A DNA stretch of 64,000 bases from Chloroflexota bacterium (GTDB lineage: Bacteria; Chloroflexota; UBA11872): positions 1,839,751-1,903,750 of the forward strand of contig CBDEVI010000002.1 in assembly GCA_965243625.1 (NCBI GenBank). Direction: 5' to 3'. The notes beneath the pieces are model-generated. The model was not told the DNA's origin, did not search any database, and worked only from the letters and a program-made list of their open reading frames with translations. This document shows positions 1,796-51,062 of this stretch, piece after piece (positions within the stretch are counted from its first letter, which is position 1; every line of letters begins with the position of its first letter). The position numbers and the translations under genes are program-made.

Positions 1796-1821
1796 GGTCC
1801 ACGACCGCTTGGGTGCCCTAT

Positions 1822-1842
1822 CTCTGTTCGGTTTTTGTTTGG
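1822..1842 (+). promoter_or_regulatory. Candidate SOS/LexA operator (GTTC-N7-GTTT direct-repeat-like) next to a TATAGT -10-like hexamer, upstream of imuA
   Basis: 'tctGTTCggtttttGTTTggTATAGTg' lies ~30-50 nt upstream of the imuA reading frame. It has one mismatch to the GTTC-N7-GTTC LexA box of some lineages. The appropriate LexA motif for this organism is unknown. Confidence 0.2.
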
Positions 1843-1876
1843 TATAGTGGCGTCCCGTCCTACCTAGGGCTTCCCA

Positions 1877-2713
1877 CTGCCTCTACCCGACCGCGAGCGT
1901 CCCGCCGCGCTGCGGCGCGCGGTCCGCGACATCGAGCAGCGCCTGGGGCTGCACGCCGCCGGCCGACTGTTCGGCGTCAATCCGCCGGAGGCCGGCTTTG
2001 CCACCGGCATCCCCGTGCTGGATCAGGCCACCGGCTTTGCGGGGATCCCTCGGGGCCGCGTGAGCGAGCTCACCGGCCCGCGCGGCGGCGGCGCACTGGC
2101 GCTGGGACTGCGCACCCTGGCCGCTGCGCTCGATCAGGGCGGGTTGGCGGCCTACGTCGATCTGCCCGGCACGTTCGCTCCCACCGCGGGCGCGGCCCTG
2201 AGCCTGGATCTGTCGCGCCTGGTGGTGGTGCGCCCGCCGGACGCCGACGCGGCGTTGCAGGCGACGGCCACGCTGCTGCGCAGCAACGCCTTCGAGGCTC
2301 TTCTGCTGGACCTGGAGGCCACCCGGCCGCCCGTCAACCGCTGGTCGCACCTGGCCGACCTAGCGGGGCGCGGGGCGGCGGGGCTGGTGGTGGTGACGGC
2401 GTCCGGCGGGCGGCGCGTCACCGGGCTGCCCTACCTGGCATCCCTGCGCCTCGGCGTGGCCTGCCGCGGCTGGCGCTGGCAGCGCAGCCGTCTGACCCAG
2501 GCGCCGGTCGGGCTGACGCTGGAGGTCCGGGTGCTGAAGTCGCGCAGCGGCACGGGCGCGCGGCGCCTCGTCATCGACTGTCCGTTTCTCAGGAGGTCCG
2601 GTGGACCGCAAGACGCTTTGCCTCTGGATGCCGCGCTTCCGCACCACGGTGGAAGCGCAGACGCACCCGGAGTGGTCGGCGCAGCCGCTGGCGATCTACG
2701 CGCGGCAAGCTAG
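1877..2713 (+). CDS. imuA: ImuA (RecA-fold SOS mutagenesis protein; cell-division-inhibitor SulA-like family)
   Basis: Frame-2 translation 'RALRRAVRDIEQRLGLHAAGRLFGVNPPEAGFATGIPVLDQATGFAGIPRGRVSELTGPRGGGALALGLRTLAAAL...' matches the ImuA N-terminus/RecA-like core. It sits directly upstream of imuB and dnaE2. The frame opens after the TAG at 1865-1867, but there is no ATG/GTG/TTG before the GTG at 2015; the only options are CTG at 1877 or 1910. The true start is therefore uncertain, and the track ORF starts at 2015. Confidence 0.65.
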   Translation: MPLPDRERPAALRRAVRDIEQRLGLHAAGRLFGVNPPEAGFATGIPVLDQATGFAGIPRGRVSELTGPRGGGALALGLRTLAAALDQGGLAAYVDLPGTFAPTAGAALSLDLSRLVVVRPPDADAALQATATLLRSNAFEALLLDLEATRPPVNRWSHLADLAGRGAAGLVVVTASGGRRVTGLPYLASLRLGVACRGWRWQRSRLTQAPVGLTLEVRVLKSRSGTGARRLVIDCPFLRRSGGPQDALPLDAALPHHGGSADAPGVVGAAAGDLRAAS

Positions 2714-4157
2714 CCAGCGGCGACTGATCGAGATTTCCGACGCCGCCCACGGCGCGGGGCTGCGGCTGGGAATGGCGGTCAAGGAGGCGGCGCAGCGCTG
2801 CCCGCAGGGCGTCTTCGTGCCCGACGACCCGCCGCGATACACCCGCGCGTTCGCGGCGGTGCTTGACGTGCTGGACCGCTTCTCCCCGTTGGTGGAGGAC
2901 GCCGGCGTGGGGCTGGCATTTGCCGACGCGGCGGGCCTGGAGCCGCTCTACGGCCCCGACGCGGCGCTGGGCGCGCGGGTGCGCCGCGACGTCGCGGCGG
3001 CGACCGGACACGCGGCCCACATCGGGCTGGCGACGGGACGCCTGGCGGCGGAGATTGCGGCGCGCACGGCGGGCGTCGAAGGCGTCACCGTCGTCGCCAC
3101 CTCCGACCGGGCCTACCTGGCCGAGCAGCCCGTGGAACGGCTGCCGCTGGACGAGCGGACGCTGGCCACCTTGCAAACGCTGGGCATTGACACGATCGGC
3201 GCATTTGCCGTCTTGCCGGCCAACGCCGTGCGGACTCGCTATGGGGTCGAGGGCGCACAGGCCCGGCGGCTGGCCCGCGGCGAGGAGCTCAGACCCCTGC
3301 GCGGTCGGACGCGGCCGCTCGTGCTGCACGAGGCGGTCGACTTCGAGTGGGAGGAGCACAACGTCGACCGCCTGGCCTTCGCGCTGCAGGCCCTGGCGCA
3401 GCGCCTGGTCGCGCGGCTGGCCCAGCGGGGCCTGATGGCGCAGCAGGTCGGCGGCCGGATCGAGCGCGCGGACGGCACGGTGCAGCGGTTCGGGCTGCCG
3501 CTGCCCGAGCCGTCCGCCGCGGCCGCCACCTTTCGCGACGCGGCCCGCTGGCGCTTCGAAGCGTGGGCCGACACGGCCCAAGCCGGCGCGGTGATGCCGG
3601 AGATTTCATCCCACCAGCCCGGCGTGGTGCGCATGAGCCTGGACGTGCGGCACCTGGCGCCGGGCGCCGGCACGCAACGGTCGCTGCTGGGCAACCGGTC
3701 GGAGCGCATGGCGCGCGCCAACCACGCGATCAGCCGCCTGCGGGCGCAGTTGGGCGACGCCGCGCTGTTCCGCATGGCGCTCCGTCCCGACGCCTTCACG
3801 CTCGACACGGCCAGCCGCCGGCTTGACGCCTACGTCGAGCCAAGCCCCACACCTGACGCCTCCCCGCCCTCGGCGGCGTGGCTGACCGGCCTGGTAGGCG
3901 CGCGCGGGCTCACGCGGCTCTTCACCCCGCCCCGTCCGGTGCGCCTCGGCCAAGACAAGGACGCCCGCTGGGTGACGCTGGAAGGCACGACCAGGAAAGT
4001 CGTCGCCAGCTATGGGCCGCAGCGGGTGCAGACGGAGTGGTGGGCGGAACCCGTCGACCGGGACTATCTGCACGTGCAGTTGGACGACGGCCGCGGCCTG
4101 GTGCTCTACCGCGACCGCGCCCGGGGGCGTTGGTTTGCCCAGGGAGCGCTCGATTGA
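2601..4157 (+). CDS. imuB: ImuB (inactive Y-family DNA polymerase-like scaffold of the ImuA-ImuB-DnaE2 mutasome)
   Basis: 518 aa. N-terminus 'LCLWMPRF...PLAIYA' fits the ImuB pattern. A strong AGGAGG sits 11 nt upstream of the GTG at 2601. It overlaps the imuA 3' end by ~110 nt and ends with a TGA that overlaps the dnaE2 start. Confidence 0.8.
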   Translation: MDRKTLCLWMPRFRTTVEAQTHPEWSAQPLAIYARQASQRRLIEISDAAHGAGLRLGMAVKEAAQRCPQGVFVPDDPPRYTRAFAAVLDVLDRFSPLVEDAGVGLAFADAAGLEPLYGPDAALGARVRRDVAAATGHAAHIGLATGRLAAEIAARTAGVEGVTVVATSDRAYLAEQPVERLPLDERTLATLQTLGIDTIGAFAVLPANAVRTRYGVEGAQARRLARGEELRPLRGRTRPLVLHEAVDFEWEEHNVDRLAFALQALAQRLVARLAQRGLMAQQVGGRIERADGTVQRFGLPLPEPSAAAATFRDAARWRFEAWADTAQAGAVMPEISSHQPGVVRMSLDVRHLAPGAGTQRSLLGNRSERMARANHAISRLRAQLGDAALFRMALRPDAFTLDTASRRLDAYVEPSPTPDASPPSAAWLTGLVGARGLTRLFTPPRPVRLGQDKDARWVTLEGTTRKVVASYGPQRVQTEWWAEPVDRDYLHVQLDDGRGLVLYRDRARGRWFAQGALD

Positions 4158-7100
4158 CCCAGCCCGCCTACGCCGAGTTGCACGCGCACAGCAATTTCTC
4201 GTTCCTGGACGGCGCGTCGCATCCCGAGGAAATGGCGGCGCGCGCGGCCGAGCTTGGGTTGACGGCGCTGGCGATCACGGATCACGACGGGGTCTACGGC
4301 GCGGTGCGGTTCTCCCACGCGGCGCGCGAGCACGGCCTGCATCCCATCGTGGGCATGGAAGCCAGCATGTCCGGCGGCTGCCACCTCACCCTGCTGGCAC
4401 GCGATCGGGAGGGCTACGCCAACATCTGCCGGATGGCCACGGCGGCGCACCGCGACCGGCCCAAGGGGACGGCGGAGCTGGACCTCGACACCCTGGCGCG
4501 GCACACGCGCGGGTTGGTTGGCCTGTCGGGTTGCCTGCGGGGCGCGATTCCAACCGCGGCGCTGCGCGGTGAGGAGCGCGAGGCCGTCGAGCTGGCGGGG
4601 ACCTATGCCGAGCTGTTCGAGCCCGGCGGCTTCTTCCTCGAGCTCCAGGACCATCGTCTCGAGGCGGAGCACCTGGCCAACGCCGGACTGCTCGAGGTCG
4701 CGCGGCGCACCGGCCTGCCGCTGGTAGCCACCAACAACGTCCACTACCACGACCGATCCCGTGCGCGACTGCAGGACGTGCTGGTTTGCATCAAGCACAC
4801 CGCCACGCTGGAAACGGCGGGGCGGCGGCTGCGGCCCAATCACGAGTTCGCGCTCAAGTCCGCCGATGAAATGGCGCGGCTCTTCGCCGGCGTCCCCGAG
4901 GCAATCAGCAACACCCTGCGCATCGCCGAGATGTGCGACTTCGACCTGAGCCGCAAGCTCGAATACGGCTTGCCCACGTTTCCCACGCCCGACGGCAAGT
5001 CGGAGTACGGCTACATGGAGCGCCTGGTCTGGGAGGGCGCGCGGCGGCGGTATCCCGACCTCGGCGAGACCGTGCGCGAGCGTGTGCGGCGGGAGCTGCG
5101 GTACGTCAAGGACCTGCGGCTGGCGGGCTATTTCCTCACCGTCCGCGACCTGGTGGACTTCTGCCACCGCCACGACATCCTGGTCAACACCCGCGGCTCG
5201 GCGCCCGGATCGATCCTCTGCTACGCCCTCGGCATCTCGATGGTCGACCCCATCGCCGCCGGGCTGATGTTCGAGCGGTTCATGTCGCCGGACCGGGACG
5301 AGCCGCCCGACATCGACCTGGACATCGAGCACCAGGAGCGCGAGCGGGTGATCCAGTACGTCTACCAGCGCCATGGCCGCCGCCGGGCGGCCATGGTGGC
5401 GAACGTCATCTGCTTTCGCGGGCGCTCGGCCATCCGCGACGTGGGCAAGGCGCTGGGTCTGCCGCAAGCCCAGGTGGACCGCCTGGCGCAGCGGCTGCAA
5501 TGGCATCCCAGCGTGGAGATGCCGCACCCGGACCAGGCGGGCGGCGACGTGCCGCGTGAGGTCTCCAATCGCGTGGGCCGCGATCTGCTGGAGCTGAGCC
5601 GGCAGATCGTGGACTTCCCCCGGCACCTGGGCATTCACACCGGGGGCATGATCATCGCCTCGCACCCGCTGGATGCGTCGGTGCCGATCGAGCCGGCGAC
5701 GATGGAGGGGCGCACCGTGGCGCAGTGGGACAAGGACGACTGCGCCGACGCCGGCCTGCTGAAGATCGACCTGCTGGGGCTGGGCATGCTGACGCTGATC
5801 CAGCGGGCGTTCCGGCTCATCGAACGGCGGCACGGCCGACGCCTGGCGCTGGCGGATTTCAGCTTCGACGACCCCGAGGTCTACGACGCGATCTGCGCGG
5901 CCGACACCATCGGCATGTTCCAGGTGGAAAGCCGCGCCCAGATGCACGTGCTGCCGCAGACCCGGCCGCGGTGCTTCTATGACCTGGTGGTGCAGGTGGC
6001 GATCATCCGGCCCGGGCCCATGACCACCAAGATGCACCGGCGGTGGATCCTGCGCCGCACCGGGCTGGAGGCGGACGATCCCGTGTGGCCCGGCCTGGCG
6101 ACGGTGCTGCAACGCACGCTGGGGCTGCCGATCTTCCAGGAGCAGTGCCTCCAGATCGCCATGGTCGCGGCCGGATTTTCGGCGACCAAGGCCGACGCGC
6201 TGCGGCGGGCGATGAGCCGCAAGCGCTCCCTGGCGCATATCCAGGCGCTGCAGGACGACCTGATGCAGGGCATGACCCGCAGCGGCATCCCCGCGGCGAC
6301 GGCGGAGCAGATCTATGCCCAGATCGAGGGCTATGCGGGCTATGGATTTCCCGAGGCGCATTCCTGTGCCTTCGCGCTGCTGGTGTACGTCTCGGCGTGG
6401 CTGAAGGTGCATCACCACGCGGAGTTCACTTGCGCGATCCTCAACAGCCAGCCGATGGGCTTCTACAGCCCGCACACGCTGGTGGGCGACGCCCAGCGGC
6501 ACGGGGTGACGGTGCGCCCGGTGGACATCCGGCACAGCCGCTTCGAGTGCACGGTGGAGCCGGACGGCGCGGTGCGAATGGGCTATCAGTACGTGGAGGG
6601 GCTCGGCGAGGCCCACCGCGAGCGCCTGGATGAGGCGTCGGCCCGCGGGCCGTATCGCTCCCTGGAAGACTTTTGCCGCCGGACGCGGTTGCCGATCAAC
6701 GTCCTGGAAGCGCTGGCCACGGCTGGGGCCTTTCGAGGCCTGGGGCTGAACCGGCGCGCGGCGCTCTGGCAGGTGCAGGCCCACGCGCCGGCGGCCCACG
6801 GCGGGGAGCTGCCGAACCTGGTGGCGGAGCTGGAGGAGCCGGTGGCGCTGCCGCCGGCCGACGAACTGGTGCAGGTGCGGATGGACTTCGCCGCCACCAG
6901 CCTCTCGACCCGCTGGCGCGGCTTGGAGTTCCTGCGGCCGGCCTTGGCGCACGCCGGCGTGCTGCGCGCCGCCGATCTGCTGGACCTGGCCGCCAAGCGG
7001 CGCGCAGGCTCGGATAGCGCAGCGACGGTCACGGCGCGGCGCGCGCGCATTCCCCGGGTCTCAATTCCGGCCGGCGTGCGCCCACCGATGCCGCGCGCAC

Positions 7101-7543
7101 GCCGCGGTCGAGGTCGATCGCTCCGCCAACCCACGGCGGGGCGCTATGGCGAGCGCGCCCGCCGCACCGGGAATCACTACGACGGCCAGAGCAGCGGGCG
7201 GCAGTTCCAGGGCCTGGGCGACAGCGGCGTTCCCGACGCCCTGCGGGAACAGGCTCGCACCGGAGTCATGGTCACCGTGGCCGGCATCGTGATCAACCGC
7301 CAGCACCCGCCCACCGCGCGCGGCTACACCTTCCTGTCGCTGGAGGATGAAACCGGGCTGGTGAACATCATCATTCGCCCGTCGGTCTTCACCCGCTACC
7401 AGCGCGCGATTTTGGATTCGCCGGTGATGCTGGTCTACGGCGAGATGCAGGACGAGCACGGGGCGGTGCAGGTGATGGCCCACACCTGCCACCCCGCCAC
7501 GAGCGACGGGCTGGGCGCACCGCCCTCGCGGGATTGGTCATGA
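4154..7543 (+). CDS. dnaE2: Error-prone DNA polymerase DnaE2 (PolIII alpha paralogue; PHP domain, polymerase core, C-terminal OB fold)
   Basis: 'AYAELHAHSNFSFLDGASHPEEMAARAAELGLTALAITDHDGVYGAVRF' is the PHP N-terminus of DnaE2. The product is ~1130 aa and ends in an OB-fold tail (VTVAGIVINRQHPPTARGYTFLSLEDETGLVNII). The likely start is TTG 4154, overlapping the imuB stop; the track ORF extends upstream to 3878 in the same frame. Confidence 0.9.
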   Translation: MTQPAYAELHAHSNFSFLDGASHPEEMAARAAELGLTALAITDHDGVYGAVRFSHAAREHGLHPIVGMEASMSGGCHLTLLARDREGYANICRMATAAHRDRPKGTAELDLDTLARHTRGLVGLSGCLRGAIPTAALRGEEREAVELAGTYAELFEPGGFFLELQDHRLEAEHLANAGLLEVARRTGLPLVATNNVHYHDRSRARLQDVLVCIKHTATLETAGRRLRPNHEFALKSADEMARLFAGVPEAISNTLRIAEMCDFDLSRKLEYGLPTFPTPDGKSEYGYMERLVWEGARRRYPDLGETVRERVRRELRYVKDLRLAGYFLTVRDLVDFCHRHDILVNTRGSAPGSILCYALGISMVDPIAAGLMFERFMSPDRDEPPDIDLDIEHQERERVIQYVYQRHGRRRAAMVANVICFRGRSAIRDVGKALGLPQAQVDRLAQRLQWHPSVEMPHPDQAGGDVPREVSNRVGRDLLELSRQIVDFPRHLGIHTGGMIIASHPLDASVPIEPATMEGRTVAQWDKDDCADAGLLKIDLLGLGMLTLIQRAFRLIERRHGRRLALADFSFDDPEVYDAICAADTIGMFQVESRAQMHVLPQTRPRCFYDLVVQVAIIRPGPMTTKMHRRWILRRTGLEADDPVWPGLATVLQRTLGLPIFQEQCLQIAMVAAGFSATKADALRRAMSRKRSLAHIQALQDDLMQGMTRSGIPAATAEQIYAQIEGYAGYGFPEAHSCAFALLVYVSAWLKVHHHAEFTCAILNSQPMGFYSPHTLVGDAQRHGVTVRPVDIRHSRFECTVEPDGAVRMGYQYVEGLGEAHRERLDEASARGPYRSLEDFCRRTRLPINVLEALATAGAFRGLGLNRRAALWQVQAHAPAAHGGELPNLVAELEEPVALPPADELVQVRMDFAATSLSTRWRGLEFLRPALAHAGVLRAADLLDLAAKRRAGSDSAATVTARRARIPRVSIPAGVRPPMPRARRGRGRSLRQPTAGRYGERARRTGNHYDGQSSGRQFQGLGDSGVPDALREQARTGVMVTVAGIVINRQHPPTARGYTFLSLEDETGLVNIIIRPSVFTRYQRAILDSPVMLVYGEMQDEHGAVQVMAHTCHPATSDGLGAPPSRDWS

Positions 7544-8725: not shown

Positions 8726-8820
8726 CGGCAGGTCCTCCGCTGACGGGAGACGCCATGGTAGCGGTCGCGCCGGGGAAGGCGTTCCGCCAGTTGGTCGACA
8801 TGCCGCGTTCGAGGACTTCG

Positions 8821-8880
8821 GATCGCCCTCACCCCGGCCCTCTCCCCAACGAGACCTCTGCGAGCTTCGGTCGGACGAAG
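8821..8880. repeat. Short dispersed repeat of the 'PSPxPSPxxGEG'-peptide family
   Basis: 'gatcgccctcaccccggccctctccccaacgagacctctgcgagcttcggtcgg' is a Pro/Ser-rich repeat motif seen in intergenic DNA of several high-GC phyla. It is a single copy here and the call is weak. Confidence 0.3.
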
Positions 8881-8902
8881 GATGGTCCGAGGAATCTCGC
8901 CA

Positions 8903-8965
8903 GCCCCCAGGTTCAGTGAAGGGTGGATTCCCGCCTTCGCGGGAATGACGGAGGCGTTGCGTCAG
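8903..8965. repeat. Palindromic MITE/REP-like repeat copy (…aggttcaGtgaagGGTGGATTCCCGCCTTCGCGGGAATGACGGAGG…)
   Basis: Same core as the copies at 35.5, 50.8 and 56.8 kb. The ORF 8882..9124 translating 'WIPAFAGMTEALRQGF' is an artefact of it. Confidence 0.6.
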
Positions 8966-9039
8966 GGATTCGATGGGCGGCCTTGCGCCATTCTGGCGTG
9001 TACCCTCGGGAACCGAATCACTGACAGAGAGAAACGCTC

Positions 9040-9420
9040 ATGGGAATCCAGCGCATCAACCCGGACAGCATGTCCGCGCCGATTGCTCCTTACACGCTCG
9101 TGGTCCGCAAGAACAACATCGTGACGACCGCCGGCATGCTGGGCCTCGACGCCGACGGCAAGCTGGTGGGTGACGACATCACCTCACAGACGCGGCAGAC
9201 GCTCGAGAACGTCAAGACCGCGCTCGCGGCCGCCGGGGCGACGCTCGAAGACGTGGTGAAGGTGACGGTGTTCATCACCGACATCGCCAATTTCTCCGGC
9301 ATGAACGAGGTTTACATCGAATACTTCGGCGACCTCAAGCCCGCGCGCTCGACGGTGGGCGTGGAATTGGCACTGCCGGGCGGCCTGGTGGAAATCGAGG
9401 CGACGGCGGTGCTCGACTAG
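9040..9420 (+). CDS. RidA/YjgF/TdcF family reactive-intermediate (enamine/imine) deaminase
   Basis: 126 aa: '...APYTLVV...NIVTTAGMLGLDADGKLVGDDITSQTRQTLENVKTALAAAGATLEDVVKVTVFITDIANFSGMNEVYIEYFGD..ARSTVGV..LPGGLVEIEATAVL' is a canonical RidA. Confidence 0.85.
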   Translation: MGIQRINPDSMSAPIAPYTLVVRKNNIVTTAGMLGLDADGKLVGDDITSQTRQTLENVKTALAAAGATLEDVVKVTVFITDIANFSGMNEVYIEYFGDLKPARSTVGVELALPGGLVEIEATAVLD

Positions 9421-9496
9421 CGGACGAGGGACTAGCCGCGGCGCCCGAAAGTTCTGTCGAACGGATAGTTCGCGCAGGGGACTAGGTTCCGCTCGT

Positions 9497-9565
9497 GGTG
9501 AGCCCTTCGGCAGGCTCAGGACAGGCTCCGTCGAACCACGCCCTTCGACAAGCTCAGGGCAAACG
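9497..9565. repeat. Two tandem degenerate copies of a short 'CCCTTCG[GA]CA[AG]GCTCAGG[AG]CA' repeat ('PFDKLRA'-peptide family)
   Basis: 'gagCCCTTCGGCAGGCTCAGGACAGGctccgtcgaaccacgCCCTTCGACAAGCTCAGGGCAAAcgg'. A related copy lies at ~17.07 kb ('gcccttcgaccggccgcagcggcatgcccgg'). Confidence 0.4.
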
Positions 9566-9600
9566 GATTCGGAGCGATATGGGCTGTGGAGCTCGCTTGT

Positions 9601-10314
9601 TCAAGGGTTCTCTAGCTGACGGGATTTACCGCGCCGTCCGATCCATTCGCTCAGGCGCGCCGCCGGGCCCCTGACAAGCGGCGCCAGGCGCCGGCGAAAG
9701 CGGAGCATCACGAGAACCGCAAGAACGCCACCGACGGCGGCGCCCACGATGACCGCCAGCGTCGGGTCCTCCAGCAGGGTCGTCACGAGGTGCTCGACCG
9801 TGTCGCCGAAGGCCCATCCGATGCCCATGTAGAGCAGGGCCCACAGCGAGATTCCGGCGGCCGCGGCGGGCACGAAGCGTCGAAAATCGCCGCGAGCGAC
9901 CCCGGCAATGACGGGGATGATGAGGCGCACGGCCGGCACGACGCGGCCGATCACGACGACCGGGAAGGCACGCCGGGCGAACCAGCGTTCGAGGCGCTCC
10001 AGGTGCGTGGGGCGAATCCGCAGGATTCGTCCGTATCGATCGAGCAACGGTCGGCCGATGCCGCGCGCAATCCAATACTGCACGCTCACGCCCGCCGTGG
10101 CGGAGGCCACCACGGTGCCCATCACCGCCCACGGGTTTGCCTCGCCGCGGTAGACCTGAAACCCCATCGTGACCACGACCACCTCGGCGGAGATCGGCAG
10201 CGGCACGCCGGCGCCCTCGAGACCAACGGCGAGGGCGAGCGCGAGGTATTGGTGATCTTCGAGCAAGGCCAGCAGCAGCTGTCCCTGCTCGGCTACCCAC
10301 TCGACCATGGCCAT
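9601..10314 (-). CDS. DedA/SNARE-associated (TVP38/TMEM64) family inner-membrane protein
   Basis: 237 aa, multi-TM. The family pattern is present: '...LALAVGLEGAGVPLPISAEVVVV...YWIARGIGRPLLDRYG...VIGRVVPAVRLIIPVIAGVARG'. Confidence 0.75.
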   Translation of the reverse strand: MAMVEWVAEQGQLLLALLEDHQYLALALAVGLEGAGVPLPISAEVVVVTMGFQVYRGEANPWAVMGTVVASATAGVSVQYWIARGIGRPLLDRYGRILRIRPTHLERLERWFARRAFPVVVIGRVVPAVRLIIPVIAGVARGDFRRFVPAAAAGISLWALLYMGIGWAFGDTVEHLVTTLLEDPTLAVIVGAAVGGVLAVLVMLRFRRRLAPLVRGPAARLSEWIGRRGKSRQLENP

Positions 10315-10473
10315 CGCACGTTGTGTGGTCCCAGGTCCACGGTAGCAACGAGCGGACCGGCAGTGGGCGGCGAGTGTCGGCCATCACGGTCGCGTTGACG
10401 CTCTATCCGCTGCTGGCCGACAATCGCGGCTCAGAGTGCTCCCGCACCGACCCGACACGGGACGGAGGTTGCG

Positions 10474-11556
10474 ATGGACGTCGGATTGTTCGCCATGCCC
10501 CTGCACCCTCCGGGGTCGAACGTCACCGAGACGCTCGAAAACGACCTCGACATGCTCATCACGCTCGAGAAGCTGGGCTATAGCGAAGCCTGGATCGGGG
10601 AGCACTTCACGACGCAGTGGGAAAACATCCCCGCGCCCGACATTTTCATCGCGCACGCGCTGGCGAAAACCGAGCGCATGAAGTTCGGGACGGGCGTGAC
10701 CTGCATGCCCAACCACAACCCGTTCATGATCGCCCACCGGATCGCCCAGCTCGACCACATGGCCAAGGGCCGCTTCATGTGGGGTGTGGGGTCCGGCGGC
10801 TTCCCCGGAGACTTCGAGGTGTTTGGCTTCGATCCGAAGACGGGCGAGCACCGGGCCATGACGCGCGAAGCCATCGAAACCGTGCTCATGCTCTGGAACG
10901 ACCCGAAGCCGGGGCGCTACCGAACGGCGTTCTGGGACTTCAACATTCCCGAGCCGGACGACCTGATCGGCCTGCGGGTGCACATGGAGCCCTACCAGAA
11001 GCCGCATCCTCCGATCGGGGTAGCCGGAGTGTCGGAAAACTCGGGCACGCTGACGCTGGCGGGCGCGCGCGGGTGGATTCCGATGAGCATCAACCTGGTG
11101 CCGACGCGCGTGATCAAGACGCACTGGGAATCGGTGGAGGAGGGCGCGCTGGAGGCCGGCCGAACGCCCGACCGGTCGCAGTGGCGCATCGCGCGCGAGG
11201 TCTACATCGCCGAAACCACCGAGAAGGCGCGGAAAGAAGCCCTGGAAGGCACGCTGGCCCGCGATTTCCGCCACTACTTCCTGCACATCATGCCGAAGGT
11301 GCGCATGCTGGACGCGATGAAGATCGACACGGACATGCCCGACTCCGACGTGACGGTGGAGTACCTGGTGGACAACGTCTTCATCGTGGGCAGCCCGGAC
11401 GACGTCACCGCCAAGCTGCAGAAGCTCTACGACGACGTGGGCGGGTTTGGCGTGCTGCTGGCCATGGCGCACGAGTGGCAGCCGCGCGACCAGTGGGTGC
11501 AGTCGATGACGCTGCTGGTGGACGAGGTGATGCCGCGGTTAAATGGGGCGAGCTAG
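10474..11556 (+). CDS. LLM-class (luciferase-like) flavin-dependent monooxygenase/oxidoreductase
   Basis: 360 aa TIM-barrel family: 'MDVGLFAMPLHPPGS...LEKLGYSEAWIGEHFTTQWENIPAPDIFIAHALAKTERMKFGTGVTCMPNHNPF'. Confidence 0.85.
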   Translation: MDVGLFAMPLHPPGSNVTETLENDLDMLITLEKLGYSEAWIGEHFTTQWENIPAPDIFIAHALAKTERMKFGTGVTCMPNHNPFMIAHRIAQLDHMAKGRFMWGVGSGGFPGDFEVFGFDPKTGEHRAMTREAIETVLMLWNDPKPGRYRTAFWDFNIPEPDDLIGLRVHMEPYQKPHPPIGVAGVSENSGTLTLAGARGWIPMSINLVPTRVIKTHWESVEEGALEAGRTPDRSQWRIAREVYIAETTEKARKEALEGTLARDFRHYFLHIMPKVRMLDAMKIDTDMPDSDVTVEYLVDNVFIVGSPDDVTAKLQKLYDDVGGFGVLLAMAHEWQPRDQWVQSMTLLVDEVMPRLNGAS

Positions 11557-11594
11557 CGGGGAGCTCGCTCGGCACCTGCGATTAGATTGTCCGG

Positions 11595-12680
11595 CTATCC
11601 GCCGATGACGTGCACCGCCTCCGGCGGGATGTGGATGCGCCAGTTGCGGTGGGCGGGGACGTTGAGTACCTGGTAGGGGTGCGCCGGGACGTCGATTTCC
11701 AGGGTTGGCGCGCCGGACGCGGCGTCGTCGACTCGGACAAACAGCGTGTGCGAGAAGCCGAACGCGGCCTCGTCGATGATGGTGACTTGGAAGCGGTTCT
11801 CGCGGTGGGTCGAGGGCCGGTCGGGCCGCTCGAGGATGATCTGCTCAGCGCGAACGGCGAGTTGGACGTGGTCGGGTTGGGGACGGGACTCGGCCTGTGC
11901 CGCGACCATGCCGAGCCCGGTGGCGACCTGCACGCGGCCACCGTCGGCGCCCACGACTCGCCCCGACAGGATGTTCTGGACCCCGAGCAGCTCCGCGGCG
12001 CGCCCGGTGGCGGGACGGTGGAAGACCTCGTCGCGCGGGCCCGCTTGCAGCACGCGCCCGCGATCGATCACCGCCAGCCGGTCGCCCACGTTGTAGGCCT
12101 CGGTGAGGTCGTGGGTGACCATGACCACGCTGAGATCGAGGCGTTGCGCGAGCTGCCGGAGCTCCCGCCGCATGGTGCGTCGGTTGCTCGAGTCGACGGC
12201 CGCGAACGGCTCGTCCAACAGCAGCACCCGAGGCTCACGCACGAGCGCACGCGCCAGGGCCACGCGCTGCGCCTGGCCGCCCGATATGCGCGCCGGCCGG
12301 CGACCCAGCAGGTCGTCCACGCCGAACATGCGCGCGAAGCTCGCCACCCGCTCGCGCCGCTCGGAATGGCGGACATGACCGAGGCCGTAGGCGATATTTT
12401 GCGCCACGGTCAGATGCGGGAAAAGCGCGTAGCTCTGCACCAGATATCCGAGATCGCGCCGTTGCGGAGGCACGTTGACGCCGGCCGAACTGTCGAACAC
12501 GACCCGGTCGTGCAGCGTGATCCGACCCTGGCGGGGCGTGAGGAGTCCGGCGATGGCTTCGAGCGTCAGCGTCTTGCCGGCGCCGGAGTGCCCATAGAGC
12601 ACGGTGATCTCGCGGTCCACGGCAAGGTCGACCGCGAGGTCGAAGCTGCCGACGGTGGTGCGGATGTCGGCCCGAATCAC
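11595..12680 (-). CDS. modC: Molybdate ABC transporter ATP-binding protein ModC (NBD plus C-terminal TOBE/MOP domain)
   Basis: Walker A 'GHSGAGKT', signature 'ISGGQAQRVALARAL' and a C-terminal MOP domain. It is the last gene of a modA-modB-modC run on the minus strand. Confidence 0.85.
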   Translation of the reverse strand: MIRADIRTTVGSFDLAVDLAVDREITVLYGHSGAGKTLTLEAIAGLLTPRQGRITLHDRVVFDSSAGVNVPPQRRDLGYLVQSYALFPHLTVAQNIAYGLGHVRHSERRERVASFARMFGVDDLLGRRPARISGGQAQRVALARALVREPRVLLLDEPFAAVDSSNRRTMRRELRQLAQRLDLSVVMVTHDLTEAYNVGDRLAVIDRGRVLQAGPRDEVFHRPATGRAAELLGVQNILSGRVVGADGGRVQVATGLGMVAAQAESRPQPDHVQLAVRAEQIILERPDRPSTHRENRFQVTIIDEAAFGFSHTLFVRVDDAASGAPTLEIDVPAHPYQVLNVPAHRNWRIHIPPEAVHVIGG

Positions 12681-13537
12681 AGGACCCGTCCTCCGAGCCG
12701 CGCGAGCGCCTTGAACACCAGCAGCCCCGCGAATGCCAGCACGATGAGGACGATGGCGATGGCGAGCGCGGCGTCGATGTCGGTCTCAATGGCTTCGAGG
12801 ATCGCCAGCGGCATCGTCTGGGTGCGGCCGAAGACGTTGCCGGCGAACATGATCGTGGCGCCGAACTCGCCCAGGGCGCGCGCCCAGCACATCACCGCGC
12901 CGCCGATCAGCGACGGCAGGGCCAGGGGCACCGTGACCCGCCGGAAGGTGCGCCATCCGCCGGCACCGAGCGTTGCGGAAACGGCTTCGAGCCGGCGATC
13001 GACGCTCTCGAATCCGGCGCGCGCGGCGCGAATGTAGAACGGCACGGCGACGAAGAGCTGCGCCAGGACCACCGCCCCGGTGGTGAACGCCACGTCCACG
13101 CCGGCGGCGTCCAGCGGGCCGCCGATGACTCCATGGCGACCAAGCGCCACGAGCAGCGCCAGCCCACCGACGACCGGCGGCAACACCACCGGCAGATCGA
13201 TCAGGGTGTCGACGATGCTTCGGCCGGGGAAGGCGTGGCGCGCGAGGAGGTAGGCCGCCGGCGTTCCCAGCACCACGGCCACGGCGACGGCGATGGCCGA
13301 GGTGGCCAGCGAAAGCCACAGCGCGGTGGTGGCCACCGGGCTGCGCAGCGCCGCGAGCACGTCGCCTTCAATGAACCCGCGGGCGATCAATGCCCCCACG
13401 GGAATGCCGATGAAGGCAACGAGGATCGCGGCGGACGCGGCAAGGGCAAGCCTGCTCCACGTGAGGGACTGGGCGCGCCGCATTGCGGAGATTCCTCGGC
13501 GAGTTTCAGCCGGCGGGCCGAAAGCCGTGCGACGCAA
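12677..13537 (-). CDS. modB: Molybdate ABC transporter permease ModB
   Basis: Six-TM MetI-like permease containing '[51 protein letters not shown]'. It overlaps modC by 4 nt (ATGA-type coupling). The real start may be the internal Met at ~13486. Confidence 0.85.
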   Translation of the reverse strand: [286 protein letters not shown]

Positions 13538-14321
13538 GCATGCGCTGGCCGGCCGGCGAATGCACGAAGTCGGTGAAGGCCGTCGCGGCCTCTCGATCGA
13601 CTCCGCGCTTCGTCACCGCGATGGGATAGGGCGCTGCGATTACGGCCTCGGGCGGAAGCGGAATCTCGACCAGCGCGCCGTCGGACGCGAGAACATCGGT
13701 GCGATAGACGAACCCGGCATCCACCACGCCCAGCTCCAGCTTCGCCGCCACGTGGCGAACGTTTTTCTCGAATGAGACCACATTGTCGAGCACGGCCTGC
13801 ACGAATCCGTCGCGTCCAATCGCCGCGACATAGCGTTCCAACGCCGTGCGGGCATAGCGTCCTACGGGTACGTCCGCAATGCCCATTACGAGGCGCACGT
13901 CCGGCGCGGCCAGGTCCGTCACGTCCGCAATCCCACGTGGATTTCCGTCAGGCACGGCGAGCACCAGCGCGTTCTCGGCGAAGGAGCGCGGCGAGGCCGC
14001 CAGCAGACCGGCCGCCTCCAACTGCTGTACGTGCACCTCGTCCGCCGTGGCAACGACATCGGCCGGAGCCCCGCGCTCGATCTGGGCCCGAAGCACCTGC
14101 GAGCCCGCGAAGTTGAGCACCACACGCGAATGGGAGTGAGCTTCCTCGAACTCGCGAGCGATTTCGGTGAAGGCATCGCGCAGGGAGGCCGCGGCATAGA
14201 CGTTGAGCTCCTCATCGCGCGGAGCGACACAGGCGCCGGTCACCAGCACCACCGCGAGGCCGGCCACGGCCGCAGCGCGCCAGATCCCCAGCGAGACCGC
14301 CATACGGCGCCGATCCGCCAT
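13506..14321 (-). CDS. modA: Molybdate ABC transporter substrate-binding lipoprotein ModA
   Basis: 'NVYAAASLRDAFTEIAREFE...RVVLNFAGSQVLRAQIERGAPADVVATAD' is the ModA/PBP2 fold. A lipoprotein signal '...GLAVVLVTGAC' follows the Met at ~14321 or 14303. The track ORF extends to 14426, where its start would share a CATG with the sthA ATG, which is implausible. Confidence 0.8.
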   Translation of the reverse strand: MADRRRMAVSLGIWRAAAVAGLAVVLVTGACVAPRDEELNVYAAASLRDAFTEIAREFEEAHSHSRVVLNFAGSQVLRAQIERGAPADVVATADEVHVQQLEAAGLLAASPRSFAENALVLAVPDGNPRGIADVTDLAAPDVRLVMGIADVPVGRYARTALERYVAAIGRDGFVQAVLDNVVSFEKNVRHVAAKLELGVVDAGFVYRTDVLASDGALVEIPLPPEAVIAAPYPIAVTKRGVDREAATAFTDFVHSPAGQRMLASHGFRPAG

Positions 14322-16999: not shown

Positions 17000-17150
17000 C
17001 AAATGTGTCCGTCATTCCGGCGAAAGCCGGAATCCAGGTCTGCGCCTCGCGGGCAACGTGCCCTTCGACCGGCCGCAGCGGCATGCCCGGGCCCAGCGGT
17101 GGGACTGCCGCTCTATTTCGGCCACGGGGCCGACCGGCTGGTTCGGATGG
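17000..17150. repeat. Composite MITE/REP-like repeat (hairpin GTCATTCCGGCGAAAGCCGGAATCCAG plus a 'CCCTTCGACCGGCCGCAGCGGCATGCCCGG' module)
   Basis: Same palindrome family as at 1661-1687. The first 51 codons of track ORF 17005..17601 ('MSVIPAKAGIQV...') come from this repeat and are not part of the NUDIX protein. Confidence 0.55.
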
Positions 17151-28631: not shown

Positions 28632-31214
28632 ATGACAGCCGAGGTTCGCCCGAGCCGAGTCTTTACCGTTCGGCCGGCGCTTCCGCAGCGGCTCGAGCGC
28701 TTGCGCGATCTCGCGTTCAACGTGTGGTGGGCGTGGACGCCCGCGGCGCAGGACCTGTTTCGGCGCATCGACGCCGAAGCCTGGCACGCTTCGCAGGGGA
28801 ATCCGGTGGCCGTGCTCACCCGAGCCGCTCCGGGGCAGCTCCAGGTGTTGGCCGAGGACCCGATCTTCGTCGCCGACCTCGACCGCGTGTCCGAAGCCTA
28901 TGACCAGTACTTAAGCCGCCCCACGTGGTTCGAGCAAGTGCACGGGCATTTGGAGGGACTGCGGGTGGCCTACGTCTCCATGGAGTTCGGCGTGGCGGAG
29001 TCGGTGCCCTTGTATTCAGGCGGCCTGGGCGTGCTGGCGGGCGACCAGCTTAAGGCCGCCAGCGATCTCGGGGTGCCGCTGGTCGGCGTCGGCATGCTCT
29101 ACCGCCAGGGGTACTTCCGGCAGTCGATCGATCCCTCCGGCGCGCAGCGCGAGCAGTTTCCGGAAAACGACGTGGAGGTCCTGCCCGTGGTCGCGGTGCG
29201 GGCGGGAGACGGGCAGCCGCTGACGGTCCGGGTGCCGATTGACGGGCATGAGATTGCGGTTCGGCTGTGGCGAATGGACGTGGGTCGCGTGCCGCTGATC
29301 CTGCTCGATGCCAACACGCCGGAGAACAGCCCGGCGGACCGCGAGCTCACCTCCCGCCTGTACATCGGTGACAGCGACATTCGCATTCGACAGGAGCTGC
29401 TGCTGGGCGTCGCCGGCATGCGCGCGTTGGACGCGCTCGATCTGACGCCGACCGTGGCCCATTTGAACGAGGGGCATAGCGCGTTTCTGATTCTGGAGCG
29501 CTTCCAGGCGCTGCGCGCACAGACCGGTCTCAGCGAGGCCGCGGCGATGCAGATCGTGCGCGCGACCAATGTCTTCACCACGCACACGCCGGTCGCGGCC
29601 GGCCACGACGAGTTTTCGGGGGACCAGGTCAAGCGTCATGCCGGCGCCTTCCTGCAAGCGTCGAACATCGATATCGACCACGCCCTGGCGCTGGGCCGGG
29701 TTGACGGCGCCAACGACGGCGAGCCGTTTGGCATTACCACTCTGGCCATGCGCGGTTCCGCCTGGCGCAATGGCGTGAGCGCGCTTCACGGCACCGTGAG
29801 CCGTCGGATGTGGGAGCGGCTGTGGCCGGGCGTACCGATCACCGAGGTTCCCATCGGACACGTGACCAATGGGGTGCATTTGCGCACGTGGGTGTCGCGG
29901 GAACTGAACGGCCTGCTCCAGCGCTACATGGGGCGCCATTGGGCCGAGCGCACCGATCCACAAGGCATCGAGGAAGGCTTGGCCGCCATTCCCGACGACG
30001 AGCTTTGGCGAGTGCATACGCAACGTCGCGAGCGCCTGGTGGCCAACGTCCGCCGACGCCTGCGAGCGCAAGCGGAGCATCGGGGAGCCGCGGCGCACGA
30101 GCTGGCGCAGGCGTCCGCCGCCCTACACAGCGACGTGCTCACGGTTGGGTTCGCGCGCCGCTTCGCGCTCTACAAGCGCCCAACCCTGCTGCTGCACGAC
30201 GTGGAACGGCTCAAGGCCATCGTCGCGAACTCGCACCGACCGGTGCAGATCATCTTCGCGGGCAAGGCCCATCCCAACGACGACCTGGCCAAGGACTTGC
30301 TGCGCGAAATCACGGCCATCAGCCGCGATCCGGCGTTCGAAGGTCGGCTGGTTTTCGTGGAGGACTACGACATGGGACTGGCGCGCGACCTGGTGCAGGG
30401 TTGCGACGTGTGGCTGAACCTGCCCATTCCACCGCAGGAGGCCAGCGGCACGAGCGGGATGAAGGCGGCCGCCAACGGCGTGCTCAACGCCAGCGTTCTC
30501 GACGGTTGGTGGGACGAGGCCTACACGCCCGAGGCGGGTTGGGCGATTGGCCGGGCGGATGTTGACGACGAACGGCAGCGGGACGCGAGCGACGCTGGGG
30601 CGATCTACGACCTGCTCGAGCACACGGTGGCCCCACTGTTCTACGACGTCGGGGCGGGAGAGACGCCGACGGCCTGGGTCCGAATGGCGCGGCGCTCGAT
30701 GGCCCTGGCGCTGACGAGGTTCAGCGCGAATCGAATGGTCCAAGATTATGTCGAGTCATTCTACGGTCCCGCGCACCTCCTCGGCCGGAGCCTGCGCGAG
30801 CACCAGGGCAGTGCGGCCACCGAGCTCGCCCACTGGCTCGACCACGTGGTGACGCAATGGCCCCACGTGCACATCATGGAGGTTCAGGCCGACGGACCAA
30901 GCCAGGTTGACGCCGGCGTGGTCGTGCCGGTGCGAACCCGTGTGGCCCTGGCGGGGCTGAGTCCCGACGACGTGACGGTCGAGGTGTTCGTGGGACACGT
31001 GGACTTCGACGGTGCACTGATCGGCGGTCGGGCCGAGGTGACGGAGCATGCAAGCGCGGACTCAGACGGCGCCCACTGGTTCGCGGGACGCGCGGTGCTG
31101 TCCCAAAGCGGACGCCTGGGCATTGCCGTCCGAGTGATTCCACGCCATTCCCTGCTGGCCGGGCCGTACGATACCGGGCTGATTCGCTGGAGCGAGGCGG
31201 CGGGCGCGACCTGA
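28632..31214 (+). CDS. glgP: Alpha-glucan (glycogen/maltodextrin) phosphorylase, GT35, DUF3417-type N-terminus
   Basis: 860 aa: 'LAFNVWWAWTPAAQDLFRRID', 'YVSMEFGVAESVPLYSGGLGVLAGD' and the PLP-lysine region 'IIFAGKAHPND'. Confidence 0.85.
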   Translation: MTAEVRPSRVFTVRPALPQRLERLRDLAFNVWWAWTPAAQDLFRRIDAEAWHASQGNPVAVLTRAAPGQLQVLAEDPIFVADLDRVSEAYDQYLSRPTWFEQVHGHLEGLRVAYVSMEFGVAESVPLYSGGLGVLAGDQLKAASDLGVPLVGVGMLYRQGYFRQSIDPSGAQREQFPENDVEVLPVVAVRAGDGQPLTVRVPIDGHEIAVRLWRMDVGRVPLILLDANTPENSPADRELTSRLYIGDSDIRIRQELLLGVAGMRALDALDLTPTVAHLNEGHSAFLILERFQALRAQTGLSEAAAMQIVRATNVFTTHTPVAAGHDEFSGDQVKRHAGAFLQASNIDIDHALALGRVDGANDGEPFGITTLAMRGSAWRNGVSALHGTVSRRMWERLWPGVPITEVPIGHVTNGVHLRTWVSRELNGLLQRYMGRHWAERTDPQGIEEGLAAIPDDELWRVHTQRRERLVANVRRRLRAQAEHRGAAAHELAQASAALHSDVLTVGFARRFALYKRPTLLLHDVERLKAIVANSHRPVQIIFAGKAHPNDDLAKDLLREITAISRDPAFEGRLVFVEDYDMGLARDLVQGCDVWLNLPIPPQEASGTSGMKAAANGVLNASVLDGWWDEAYTPEAGWAIGRADVDDERQRDASDAGAIYDLLEHTVAPLFYDVGAGETPTAWVRMARRSMALALTRFSANRMVQDYVESFYGPAHLLGRSLREHQGSAATELAHWLDHVVTQWPHVHIMEVQADGPSQVDAGVVVPVRTRVALAGLSPDDVTVEVFVGHVDFDGALIGGRAEVTEHASADSDGAHWFAGRAVLSQSGRLGIAVRVIPRHSLLAGPYDTGLIRWSEAAGAT

Positions 31215-34004: not shown

Positions 34005-34079
34005 GGGCGATTAGCTCAGCTGGGAGAGCGCTACGTTTACACCGTAGAAGTCGCAGGTTCGAGTCCTGCATCGCCCACC
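34005..34079 (+). tRNA. tRNA-Val (anticodon TAC)
   Basis: GGGCGAT-TA-GCTC-AGCTGGGA-GAGC-G-CTACG-TTTACAC-CGTAG-AAGTC-GCAGG-TTCGAGT-CCTGC-ATCGCCC-A-CC folds as a cloverleaf with 7/4/5/5-bp stems and a TTCGA T-loop. CC is encoded; the final A is not. Confidence 0.9.
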
Positions 34080-35304: not shown

Positions 35305-35380
35305 GGCGAGATAGCTCAGTCGGTAGAGCAGTGGACTGAAAATCCATGTGTCGCCAGTTCGATTCTGGCTCTCGCCACCA
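35305..35380 (+). tRNA. tRNA-Phe (anticodon GAA)
   Basis: GGCGAGA-TA-GCTC-AGTCGGTA-GAGC-A-GTGGA-CTGAAAA-TCCAT-GTGTC-GCCAG-TTCGATT-CTGGC-TCTCGCC-A-CCA is a canonical cloverleaf with CCA encoded. Confidence 0.9.
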
Positions 35381-35509: not shown

Positions 35510-35640
35510 CGCTCCGAGGTTCAATGAAGGGTGGATTCCCGCCTTCGCGGGAATGACGAAGGATTACGCAACGGTCTCCCTTCGCGGGAATGACGGAGGG
35601 GGCCGCCGAGGATTCTCTTCGTCGGAACGACGCATCAGGG
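35510..35640. repeat. MITE/REP-like composite repeat with two 'CTTCGCGGGAATGACG' hairpin halves
   Basis: 'ccgaggttcaatgaagGGTGGATTCCCGCCTTCGCGGGAATGACGaaggattacgcaacggtctcCCTTCGCGGGAATGACGGAGGgg…' is near-collinear with the copies at 8.9, 50.8 and 56.8 kb. Confidence 0.6.
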
Positions 35641-50769: not shown

Positions 50770-50915
50770 GGCTTCGAGGTGAGGCGGCGGGTGGATTCCC
50801 GCCCCGTATCAAGTACGGGGCAGGCTCTTCGCGGGAATGACGGAGGGGTTACGCGAAGGCCTCCCTGCGATGGGACATGCTTCGCGGGAATGACGAGGGC
50901 TTTGCCGGAGTCTCC
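50770..50915. repeat. MITE/REP-like composite repeat with nested hairpin (GGGTGGATTCCCGCCCCGTATCAAGTACGGGGCAGG…CTTCGCGGGAATGACG ×2)
   Basis: Near-identical to the copy at 56.77-56.92 kb. Track ORF 50728..50934 ('VDSRPVSSTGQALRGNDGG…FAGMT') is its translation artefact. Confidence 0.6.
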
Positions 50916-51062
50916 AATTCAGGGGCGAATGTGAGAGACCCCCTATGGCGAGTCTCCGGCGCGGCTATGACAAAATCTCCAGTTGCATGAGGCCCAATGG
51001 CGTAGCCCGTGATGACAATCGGCGGGGATCCGGGTCCTGAGCCCAGCGTGATCGGCTGACCC

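Follow-up and report, generated by a model that had tools for sequence, protein, structure and literature searches.

An imuA-imuB-dnaE2 mutasome operon of an uncultured Chloroflexota lineage with a probable CTG start codon and a direct-repeat candidate operator

Positions 1825–7543 of a 64,000-nucleotide stretch of Chloroflexota DNA (GenBank assembly GCA_965243625.1, contig CBDEVI010000002.1, positions 1,839,751 to 1,903,750; this whole stretch is called the window below) probably carry a functional imuA-imuB-dnaE2 mutasome operon of an uncultured lineage of ~70% GC. In our reading, the operon is transcribed from an extended −10 promoter that abuts a direct-repeat operator, and the translation of imuA begins at a CTG codon. 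We assign a probability of about 0.6 to this reading and also to the CTG start by itself. The three genes are collinear on the forward strand within 1800–7543, in DNA of ~70–77% GC, and all three gave family or domain profile matches, in agreement with the original prediction, made from the letters of the DNA, of a complete collinear cassette. The cassette is a further case of a known mutasome system, and its odd junctions are real, conserved, and mostly explained.

Scans of genome and metagenome collections returned 38 loci, 37 of them related and most of them from Chloroflexota metagenome-assembled genomes; one extra relative was obtained through an exact-protein look-up. Complete metagenome-assembled chromosomes with the cassette are OZ253558.1, OZ244789.1, OZ253587.1, OZ244802.1, OZ242271.1, OY764080.1, OZ240251.1, and OZ244806.1. 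The counts given below differ in their base: codon tallies refer to 30 main-clade loci, column entropy to 27 loci, the operator pattern to 37 related loci, and the gene overlap to 23 relatives. The gene order, with imuA upstream of imuB-dnaE2, was kept in every related locus long enough to contain all three genes. A protein search with ImuA gave a tight family of ~30 sequences with 41–97% identity, beyond which the next matches were ordinary RecAs and no canonical ImuA. In all main-clade loci with both genes delimited, the imuA frame comprises 288 codons, counted from an NTG equivalent to window position 1847.

The RecA-like imuA frame of the window opens at position 1868, directly behind an in-frame TAG at 1865–1867, and its first ATG, GTG, or TTG is the GTG at 2015. 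The original prediction had described this gap correctly and had offered two explanations, a noncanonical CTG start or a real N-terminal truncation. The CTG start is the best explanation, whereas the truncation did not hold. Profile alignment of the N terminus placed the beginning of RecA homology at frame residues 11–14, far upstream of 2015, and not at residue ~50, the outcome that would have refuted the original prediction. The GTG at 2015 is not conserved, the relatives having alanine at that position. Among a trio of TAG-bearing genomes, the 45 N-terminal codons upstream of it showed 0.02–0.06 nonsynonymous differences per site (pN) versus 0.10–0.18 synonymous differences per site (pS). 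Because this upstream segment is constrained in genomes with the TAG, because GTG 2015 is unconserved, and because 1880–2014 encodes the equivalent of the RecA N-terminal helix, we rejected a truncation at 2015.

Four independent assemblies share the TAG (the window, L003, L025, and L039), which led us to reject a sequencing error; the two sister genomes L002 and L004 have TGG in its place, and the other loci have CAG, the codon of most relatives, or CAA. It overlaps a Shine-Dalgarno-like AGGG at 1866–1869 on the forward strand (the combined feature spanning 1865–1869), in which the GGG is invariant and the preceding base is always a purine. We also rejected the possibility that imuA is a pseudogene, as the ratio of nonsynonymous to synonymous substitution rates (dN/dS) was 0.11–0.19 at a dS of 0.16–0.19 among the first three TAG genomes compared, and the frame contains no further stops or frameshifts. 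A programmed frameshift from the open reading frame at 1780–2727 was rejected as well: that frame crosses the end of a repeat resembling a miniature inverted-repeat transposable element (MITE) and the candidate operator, and it is an out-of-frame artefact of high GC.

Upstream of the TAG, the imuA frame reads GTG (1847) GCG TCC CGT CCT ACC TAG (1865) GGC, which corresponds to the database N terminus MASRP.Q of the relatives' 288-amino acid proteins; in the databases, the relatives' proteins begin M-[AGT]-S-R-x-x-Q-G. Bases 1850–1867 gave a pooled pN/pS of 2.75 in the imuA frame, with third codon positions the most conserved, and the ratio fell to 0.51, 0.58, and 0.26 over successive segments from 1868 on. 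Judged by these patterns, 1850–1867 is a segment that evolves like noncoding DNA.

We propose that imuA most probably starts at CTG 1877 and ends with the TAG at 2711–2713 (1877–2713, forward strand), encoding 278 amino acids. The evidence is comparative. All 30 main-clade loci have the CTG, and in none of them do codons 2–21 include ATG, GTG, or TTG. Between the TAG and Arg-8 of a conserved Arg-Pro-Ala-Ala motif, the window has CTG 1877 and no other near-cognate codon in frame. An AGGG (GGGTG in most relatives) lies 7–8 nucleotides before it, and the run of G is invariant even in genomes in which the codon at 1865 is TAG or TGG. The three codons between AGGG and CTG are hypervariable (GFP, GSR, GSA, GAA, and GFA) among genomes that are 93–97% identical, as expected of a Shine-Dalgarno spacer. 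A more distant locus with 67% identity (L027) has a canonical GTG start (MPSPD...) within 2 nucleotides of the window CTG (LPLPD...), with AAGG in place of AGGG. Finally, residue 5 of ImuA counted from CTG 1877 aligns to RecA residue 4–5, so that the two N termini coincide.

Under this model, the TAG would be an irrelevant base change in a short 5′ untranslated region (5′UTR), inside the weak Shine-Dalgarno site AGGG. Initiation at CUG would keep the level of ImuA low, given that in E. coli CUG initiates at ~1–2% of AUG (10.1101/063800). The operon would then lack ATG starts altogether, with CTG for imuA, GTG for imuB, and TTG for dnaE2.

The region ahead of the CTG contains a promoter block that is conserved as a unit. 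A candidate operator at 1825–1842 (forward strand) is formed by the direct repeat TGTTCGG (1825–1831)-TTTT-TGTTTGG (1836–1842), which has an 11-bp period and abuts the −10. The extended −10 element, TG-G-TATAGT, is TGGTATAGT at 1841–1848 on the same strand, with its hexamer at 1843–1848. The GTTC-N7-GTTT (1826–1840) and TATAGT (1843–1848) to which the original prediction had drawn attention are both present and lie within this deeply conserved block, the GTTC-N7-GTTT being part of the direct repeat. Column entropy was near zero over 1825–1846 and high directly upstream of 1825 (27 loci). The resulting 22-nucleotide block sits in at least 10 different upstream contexts, the sequence ahead of it differing in nearly every subclade.

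Of the 37 related loci, 35 have a single exact match to the pattern GTTCG-N6-GTWYGG upstream of imuA; the exceptions are L014 (no exact match) and L027 (one base off). The window element is an exact match to the stricter family pattern GTTCG-N6-GTNNGGTAT, which includes the start of the −10. No other exact copy of the stricter pattern was present in the 64-kb window, and no copy of GTTCG-N6-GTWYGG beyond the imuA site was present in the flanks of the other loci, so that a regulon could not be defined. Two loci have an exact match to GTTCG-N6-GTWYGG inside imuB, on the opposite strand and at the same relative position (L014, 3286–3302; L016, 9341–9357).

The form TAnnnT was found for the hexamer in all 30 main-clade loci, the variants including TATCAT, TATAGT, TATCCT, TATTCT, and others, preceded by TGG. 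A TAnnnT behind TGG is the signature of an extended −10 element, and the failure of a two-hexamer promoter scan to find a −35/−10 pair fits a promoter of this type. Distant clades with 48–67% ImuA identity keep GTTCG(G)-N5-GTATGG followed by TAnnnT, as GTTCGG-N5-GTATGG-TATATT in L029, L030, L035, L036, and L038 and as TGTTCG-N5-TGTATGG-TAGACT or -TAAACT in L028 and L034. There, the block is clearly noncoding: behind it comes a real 5′UTR in which GGAG or GAAGGAG forms the Shine-Dalgarno site, and a canonical start follows. In the clades with 48–51% identity, only the two half-sites are kept, and the 5-nucleotide spacer is free to vary.

This conservation makes the direct repeat a well-supported candidate operator. 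Transcription would begin at ~1855–1857 on the forward strand, 7–9 nucleotides past the −10 TGGTATAGT from which the position is predicted, and within an invariant TCCCGT at 1853–1858. Relative to this start, the repeat lies at approximately −13 to −30 and touches the −10, a position that suits a repressor rather than an activator; it would most likely be a repressor site that blocks RNA polymerase.

The promoter bears directly on GTG 1847–1849, the codon that matches the database start of the relatives' 288-amino acid ImuA, since the T of this codon closes the hexamer and the G comes directly after it. If imuA started here, the TAG would be a true nonsense codon, and ImuA would be dead or truncated from GTG 2015 without its N-terminal helix. 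The public gene calls of the relatives do begin at the NTG equivalent to 1847, no stop codon interrupts the frame from 1847 in 26 of the 30 loci, and gene callers give truncated products in TAG genomes (P0002, 256 amino acids). However, the loci differ at this codon (13 with ATG, 10 with CTG, and 7 with GTG), and we judged it not to be a start because it lies inside the −10 hexamer, because the expected transcription start is downstream of it, and because 1850–1867 is not coding-like. The TG that follows the hexamer in L027 is not in the frame of imuA. A nonsense codon is also difficult to reconcile with the sharing of the TAG by four genomes with 5–7% divergence in imuA (first three measured) and with strong purifying selection that extends upstream of the unconserved GTG 2015. 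We consider this explanation improbable. A leaderless mRNA from 1847 was rejected, as there is no TAnnnT 6–8 nucleotides upstream, the codon is CTG in 10 loci, and the conserved hexamer covers it.

Just as improbable, in our view, is translation from 1847 on transcripts of a promoter further upstream, with readthrough of the TAG or with termination there and re-initiation, for example at CTG 1877. Such a scheme could draw on the fact that all loci have a codon capable of initiation (ATG, GTG, or CTG) at 1847 and that CTG 1877 lies just 10 nucleotides past the TAG, and the co-directional MacB-type permease gene upstream makes read-through transcription conceivable. It is opposed by the lack of a Shine-Dalgarno site ahead of 1847, where there is just TTTGGTATA, by the noncoding pN/pS of 1850–1867 and the out-of-frame TG of L027, and by the upstream context, which differs in nearly every subclade and so provides no common upstream promoter. 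The predicted RNA structure of the 5′UTR was no better than that of shuffled sequences (z = −0.58).

A start at codon 22 (window position 1910), with the protein beginning at the helix that resembles the RecA N terminus (RecA-NT), has still less to recommend it. This codon is TTG in 18 of the 30 loci, and gene callers choose the TTG when codon 1 is CTG (P0017). Yet it is CTG in 11 loci, including the subclade of the window, where a CTG start would still be needed, and it is AGC in L023. There is no Shine-Dalgarno-like sequence ahead of 1910, and a nearly invariant RPAA motif and a conserved arginine four residues upstream would be left untranslated. The conserved ImuA arginine aligns with RecA Lys-6, a residue reported to form an inter-subunit salt bridge (PMC6511836).

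These comparisons leave CTG 1877 as the start that we favor, with several points to be set against it. Both the CTG initiation and the transcription start are deduced from comparative sequence analysis. The invariance of the CTG is by itself weak evidence, since many third positions are invariant and CTG is presumably the commonest leucine codon in so GC-rich a genome. The ten codons after the CTG had a modest pN/pS of 0.58, and estimates from such short stretches are noisy; read in another frame, the putatively noncoding segment 1850–1867 gave 0.44. The AGGG, moreover, is a weak Shine-Dalgarno site.

By analogy with other phyla, control of the operon by LexA and the SOS response is plausible. 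In many phyla, LexA regulates the imuA-imuB-dnaE2 cassette, which counts there among the core members of the SOS regulon (PMC4951493, PMC6511836). Since the cassette is under LexA control elsewhere, LexA or a LexA-like damage-responsive regulator would be the natural candidate for the repressor, and we infer that the operon may be induced by DNA damage. Alphaproteobacterial LexA binds a direct repeat, GTTC-N7-GTTC (PMC4951493), and LexA motifs shift between clades, including to direct repeats (PMC4951493, PMC6511836).

Several observations stand against an assignment to LexA. The LexA of Chloroflexi has been reported with a palindrome of the GAAC-N4-GTTC type (PMC4951493). The first half-site of the direct repeat is GTTC in all loci, but the second is GTTT, GTAC, or GTAT and never GTTC. 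With the LexA proteins of E. coli and B. subtilis as queries, tblastn found no lexA in the window or in any of the loci; a weak match at 30639–30761 was discarded because it lies inside a phosphorylase gene. The Cheo box GAAC-N4-GTTC gave one chance-level match in the window, at 9979. In addition, one subclade has a Cheo-type palindrome, TAGAACATTGTTCTA, ~45 nucleotides upstream of the direct repeat, which in these genomes may be the site that LexA actually uses.

An alternative explanation is that the direct repeat belongs to some other regulator or is a promoter-recognition element, in which case the operon is perhaps not SOS-controlled. The divergent second half-site and the palindromic motif reported for Chloroflexi LexA speak for it, as do the lack of a lexA linked to the cassette in the window and the loci and the lack of a second motif copy anywhere in the window or in the sequence that flanks the other loci. 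Winged-helix response regulators, too, typically have sites made of 7-bp direct repeats 4 bp apart. A position at approximately −13 to −30 that touches the −10 suits a repressor, however, and the cassette is generally LexA-regulated in the phyla studied, with LexA motifs that change between clades and can become direct repeats. On balance, we regard a non-LexA site as somewhat unlikely, and a LexA-like repressor at the direct repeat remains our preferred interpretation.

A palindrome resembling the LexA site of Gram-positive bacteria was observed as TAGAACATTGTTCTA in L011, TAGAACATTGTTCGG in L033, and TAGAACAGCGTTCTG in L015. It is degenerate in L010, L013, L019, L020, L021, and L024 and absent from the subclade of the window. 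The palindrome lies between imuA and a divergent gene, the N terminus of which looks by eye like that of an M20-type amidohydrolase.

The ImuA protein is close to RecA. It matched the Pfam RecA family (PF00154) with E = 6e-18, frame residues 14–152 covering profile positions 2–141, and single-copy RecA chains in the PDB at ~1e-17. The NCBIfam ImuA model NF033429 gave 52.7 bits versus a cut-off of 150, and RecA models scored higher. An AlphaFold2 model with a predicted local distance difference test score (pLDDT) of 77 contains a RecA core and an N-terminal helix (residues 8–23), and its top Foldseek matches were RecA, with E ~1e-16. The RecA-NT-like helix region, RPAALRRAVRDIEQRLG, is encoded at 1898–1948 (forward strand); it is identified by alignment to the RecA N terminus, by the helix in the AlphaFold2 model, and by a pN below pS in the TAG trio.

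The Walker A motif of ImuA at 2075–2098 (forward strand) is degenerate, reading GPRGGGAL, with alanine and leucine in place of Lys-72 and Thr-73 in an alignment to E. coli RecA. The clade consensus, GPxGSGAL, likewise lacks the lysine. The RecA catalytic Glu-96 is replaced by proline (VDLPG), and the Walker B aspartate is retained. These substitutions suggest that ImuA is presumably ATPase-dead. Within its 278 amino acids, the RecA C-terminal domain is gone, with only a disordered tail past the core. ImuA is a RecA-like protein that kept the N-terminal oligomerization helix and lost the ATPase residues and the C-terminal domain.

The second gene, imuB (2601–4157, forward strand), encodes an inactive Y-family polymerase of 518 amino acids that matches Pfam IMS and IMS_C. 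Its catalytic carboxylates are replaced: VDMD and SIDE of Pol IV (7yll) correspond to LWMP and GVGL (GVGLAF), and a Y-family fold with its catalytic carboxylates replaced identifies the protein as ImuB. A QRSLLG sequence (3675–3692), a candidate clamp-binding motif, is followed by the RecA-NT-like RMARANHAISRLRAQLGDAALFRM (3705–3776), both invariant in the relatives; their likeness to the published motifs was judged by eye, and Pfam gave no match. An exact look-up of this ImuB sequence returned no record. ImuB would be a catalytically dead scaffold with clamp-binding-like and RecA-NT-like motifs. We can only speculate that ImuA docks on the end of a RecA filament through its own helix and that ImuB docks on ImuA.

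The third gene, dnaE2 (4154–7543, forward strand), encodes an error-prone C-family polymerase of 1129 amino acids, which scored 1189 bits against NF004225 (cut-off of 939) and contains the Pfam domains PHP, DNA_pol3_alpha, finger, HHH_6, and OB. DnaE2 is the polymerase of the mutasome. A clade-specific insert before the OB fold (6995–7264, forward strand) consists of an Arg/Pro-rich variable linker (6995–7138) and a conserved 42-amino acid motif, GRYGERARRTGNHYDGQSSGRQFQGLGDSGVPDALREQARTG (7139–7264). In an alignment of 21 DnaE2 sequences, the motif was also present in L028 and L029, which have ~50% identity, and missing in L038. No Pfam match was found for 6995–7264. The idea that the Arg-rich segment arose in the window by MITE insertion or frameshift was rejected, as the insert is clade-wide and includes the conserved motif.

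The gene junctions proved to be as tight as the original prediction had described them. The imuB Shine-Dalgarno site, AGGAGG at 2591–2596 (forward strand), lies inside imuA, and GAGGAGG, or in a few cases GAGGAGA, is conserved in all relatives. The GTG start of imuB follows 4 nucleotides later, at 2601, and the relatives start with GTG or ATG. The overlap of imuA and imuB, predicted at ~110 nucleotides, is exactly 113 nucleotides (2601–2713, forward strand) and has the same length in all 23 relatives with both genes delimited. Within it, pN/pS was 1.27 in the imuA frame versus 0.34 in the imuB frame, and the ImuA tail that it encodes (residues 241–278) has a pLDDT of <50 and is predicted to be disordered. 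In the overlap, purifying selection acts on the imuB frame only, and the ImuA tail has the look of an unselected run-on.

At the imuB/dnaE2 junction (4142–4157, forward strand), a GGGAG at 4142–4146 precedes a TTG start at 4154, which overlaps the TGA stop of imuB at 4155–4157 to form ATTGA. The choice of this TTG, likewise anticipated, is backed by NF004225, which aligns residue 3 to profile position 3. An overlap of start and stop of this kind is an arrangement typical of translational coupling, which may operate here. The ATTGA junction was kept in all relatives with a readable junction except L005, which has ACTGA; in that locus, the dnaE2 start would be CTG or lie elsewhere.

The dispersed repeat upstream of the operator is real. 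This MITE-like element of 126 bp occupies 1660–1785, with perfect 17-nucleotide inverted ends (1660–1676 and 1769–1785) and a GC hairpin at 1726–1746, and it ends ~40 nucleotides before the operator. Its end module has 14 copies in the window versus 1.9 expected. The suggestion that the insertion had remodelled the SOS promoter was not upheld, as the 22-nucleotide block is identical in loci that lack the MITE (L001 and L005) and occurs in at least 10 contexts. L039 has a near-identical MITE upstream of imuA, yet a different upstream gene.

Hairpin-forming repeat modules (GGATTCCCGCCTTCGCGGGAATGACGGAGG and GGGCGGGTCTGAGACCCGCCCCTACC) fill many intergenic regions, often in tandem or as mosaics. 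Repeat clusters at 8903–8980, 17010–17040, 35511–35632, 50788–50925, 56784–56923, and 62405–62622 consist of the same short hairpin-forming modules. In-frame peptide modules derived from repeats (e.g. LPGRPSPQPSPTGRGSKSGRALADERRYAKVSQGE and HPNPLPEGEGE) were observed at two ImuB loops in L010, L014, L016, L017, L018, L021, and L024. The ImuB proteins of insertion-bearing relatives are 560–741 amino acids long versus 518 in the window, the copy of which has no insertions. Similar insertions occur in the DnaE2 linker (L016) and in the N-terminal, 5′ coding part of imuA (L028 and L034). MITE-like elements seem to be tolerated inside mutasome genes.

The genes that flank the cassette are unrelated to it: a co-directional MacB/FtsX (MacB-type) permease gene lies upstream, and an amidohydrolase gene lies downstream on the opposite strand. 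In L001, the closest relative with CAG at codon 7, the sequence of imuB is distributed among three frames and that of dnaE2 between two (8734–13688); the broken frames reflect either errors of long-read assembly or decay of the cassette. Elsewhere in the window, an 862-bp tandem duplication was found at 52981–54349 (93% identity over 300 nucleotides), with a third copy of ~74% identity at ~35885–36286; the duplicated segments near 52981 and 35885 probably represent small paralogues encoded on the minus strand. The Rfam matches in the window were just two tRNA genes, at 34005–34077 and 35305–35377.

The details of the wiring are mildly unusual and leave the kind of system unchanged. Of most interest are the proposed use of CTG as the start codon throughout the clade and the identity of the protein bound to the direct repeat. 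The proposed CTG lies 30 nucleotides downstream of the database start. In consequence for annotation, gene callers and databases assign this family either a 288-amino acid protein with its start placed within its own promoter or, for four of the genomes, a protein that is truncated or broken, and pipelines that accept only ATG, GTG, and TTG would label a selected, functional mutasome gene as defective. If the CUG start is confirmed, it would be a near-cognate codon that throttles a mutagenic complex throughout a clade. The conserved direct repeat offers a testable candidate site for a damage-response regulator in these uncultured Chloroflexota.

With distinctly less than even confidence, we can extend these observations to a wider picture of a marine or sponge-type Chloroflexota lineage that combines a fixed CUG start for ImuA, an NTG "start" that is part of the −10, a direct-repeat operator GTTCGG-N5-GTWYGG, and an ATPase-dead ImuA that uses its RecA helix as an adaptor at the filament end. 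If this is true, GTTCGG-N5-GTWYGG would represent either a class of LexA motif that is new to the phylum or the binding site of a damage regulator other than LexA. An ImuA adaptor on the end of a RecA filament would offer a surface of its own to the RecA-NT motif of ImuB.

Near-cognate starts are known in bacteria, as in the AUU of infC and in rare annotated CTG starts. The proposed imuA start resembles such cases in that a weak codon behind a Shine-Dalgarno-like site would hold translation low, and it differs from them in being fixed across a clade (30/30 loci, on comparative evidence) and in having no known autoregulatory logic. The LexA box of Acidobacterium is also of the GTTC-N7-GTTC type. 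The candidate operator shares with the alphaproteobacterial LexA box its direct-repeat form, the 11-bp period, a first half-site of GTTC, and overlap with the imuA core promoter (PMC4951493). It differs in its second half-site (GTTT, GTAC, or GTAT), its longer unit (GTTCGG/GTWYGG), and its Chloroflexota host.

The operon has the gene order and tight coupling of the ImuA-ImuB-DnaE2 (ImuC) systems of Caulobacter crescentus, Pseudomonas aeruginosa, Mycobacterium tuberculosis, and Myxococcus xanthus (PMC6511836, PMC12926913). As in these known mutasomes, a RecA homologue is combined with a dead Y-family protein that has clamp-binding-like and RecA-NT-like motifs and with an error-prone DnaE2. Unlike in the known cassettes, ImuA is closer to RecA and scores below the ImuA cut-off, imuA and imuB overlap by 113 nucleotides, imuA has a probable CTG start, and DnaE2 contains a clade-specific insert of ~90 amino acids. 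The ImuA of the window also differs from other ImuA proteins in that its N terminus aligns to the RecA N-terminal oligomerization helix; the RecA-NT motif has been found to cluster with Y-family C termini for RecA and not for ImuA (PMC6511836). It is more RecA-like than the proteobacterial ImuA1 and the actinobacterial ImuA2, a property shared with ImuA3, the active ATPase of Myxococcus xanthus (PMC12926913). ImuA3 has intact Walker A and B motifs, whereas in the ImuA of the window the Walker A lysine and threonine and the catalytic glutamate are replaced, and in this respect it resembles the ATPase-dead ImuA1 and ImuA2 (PMC12926913).

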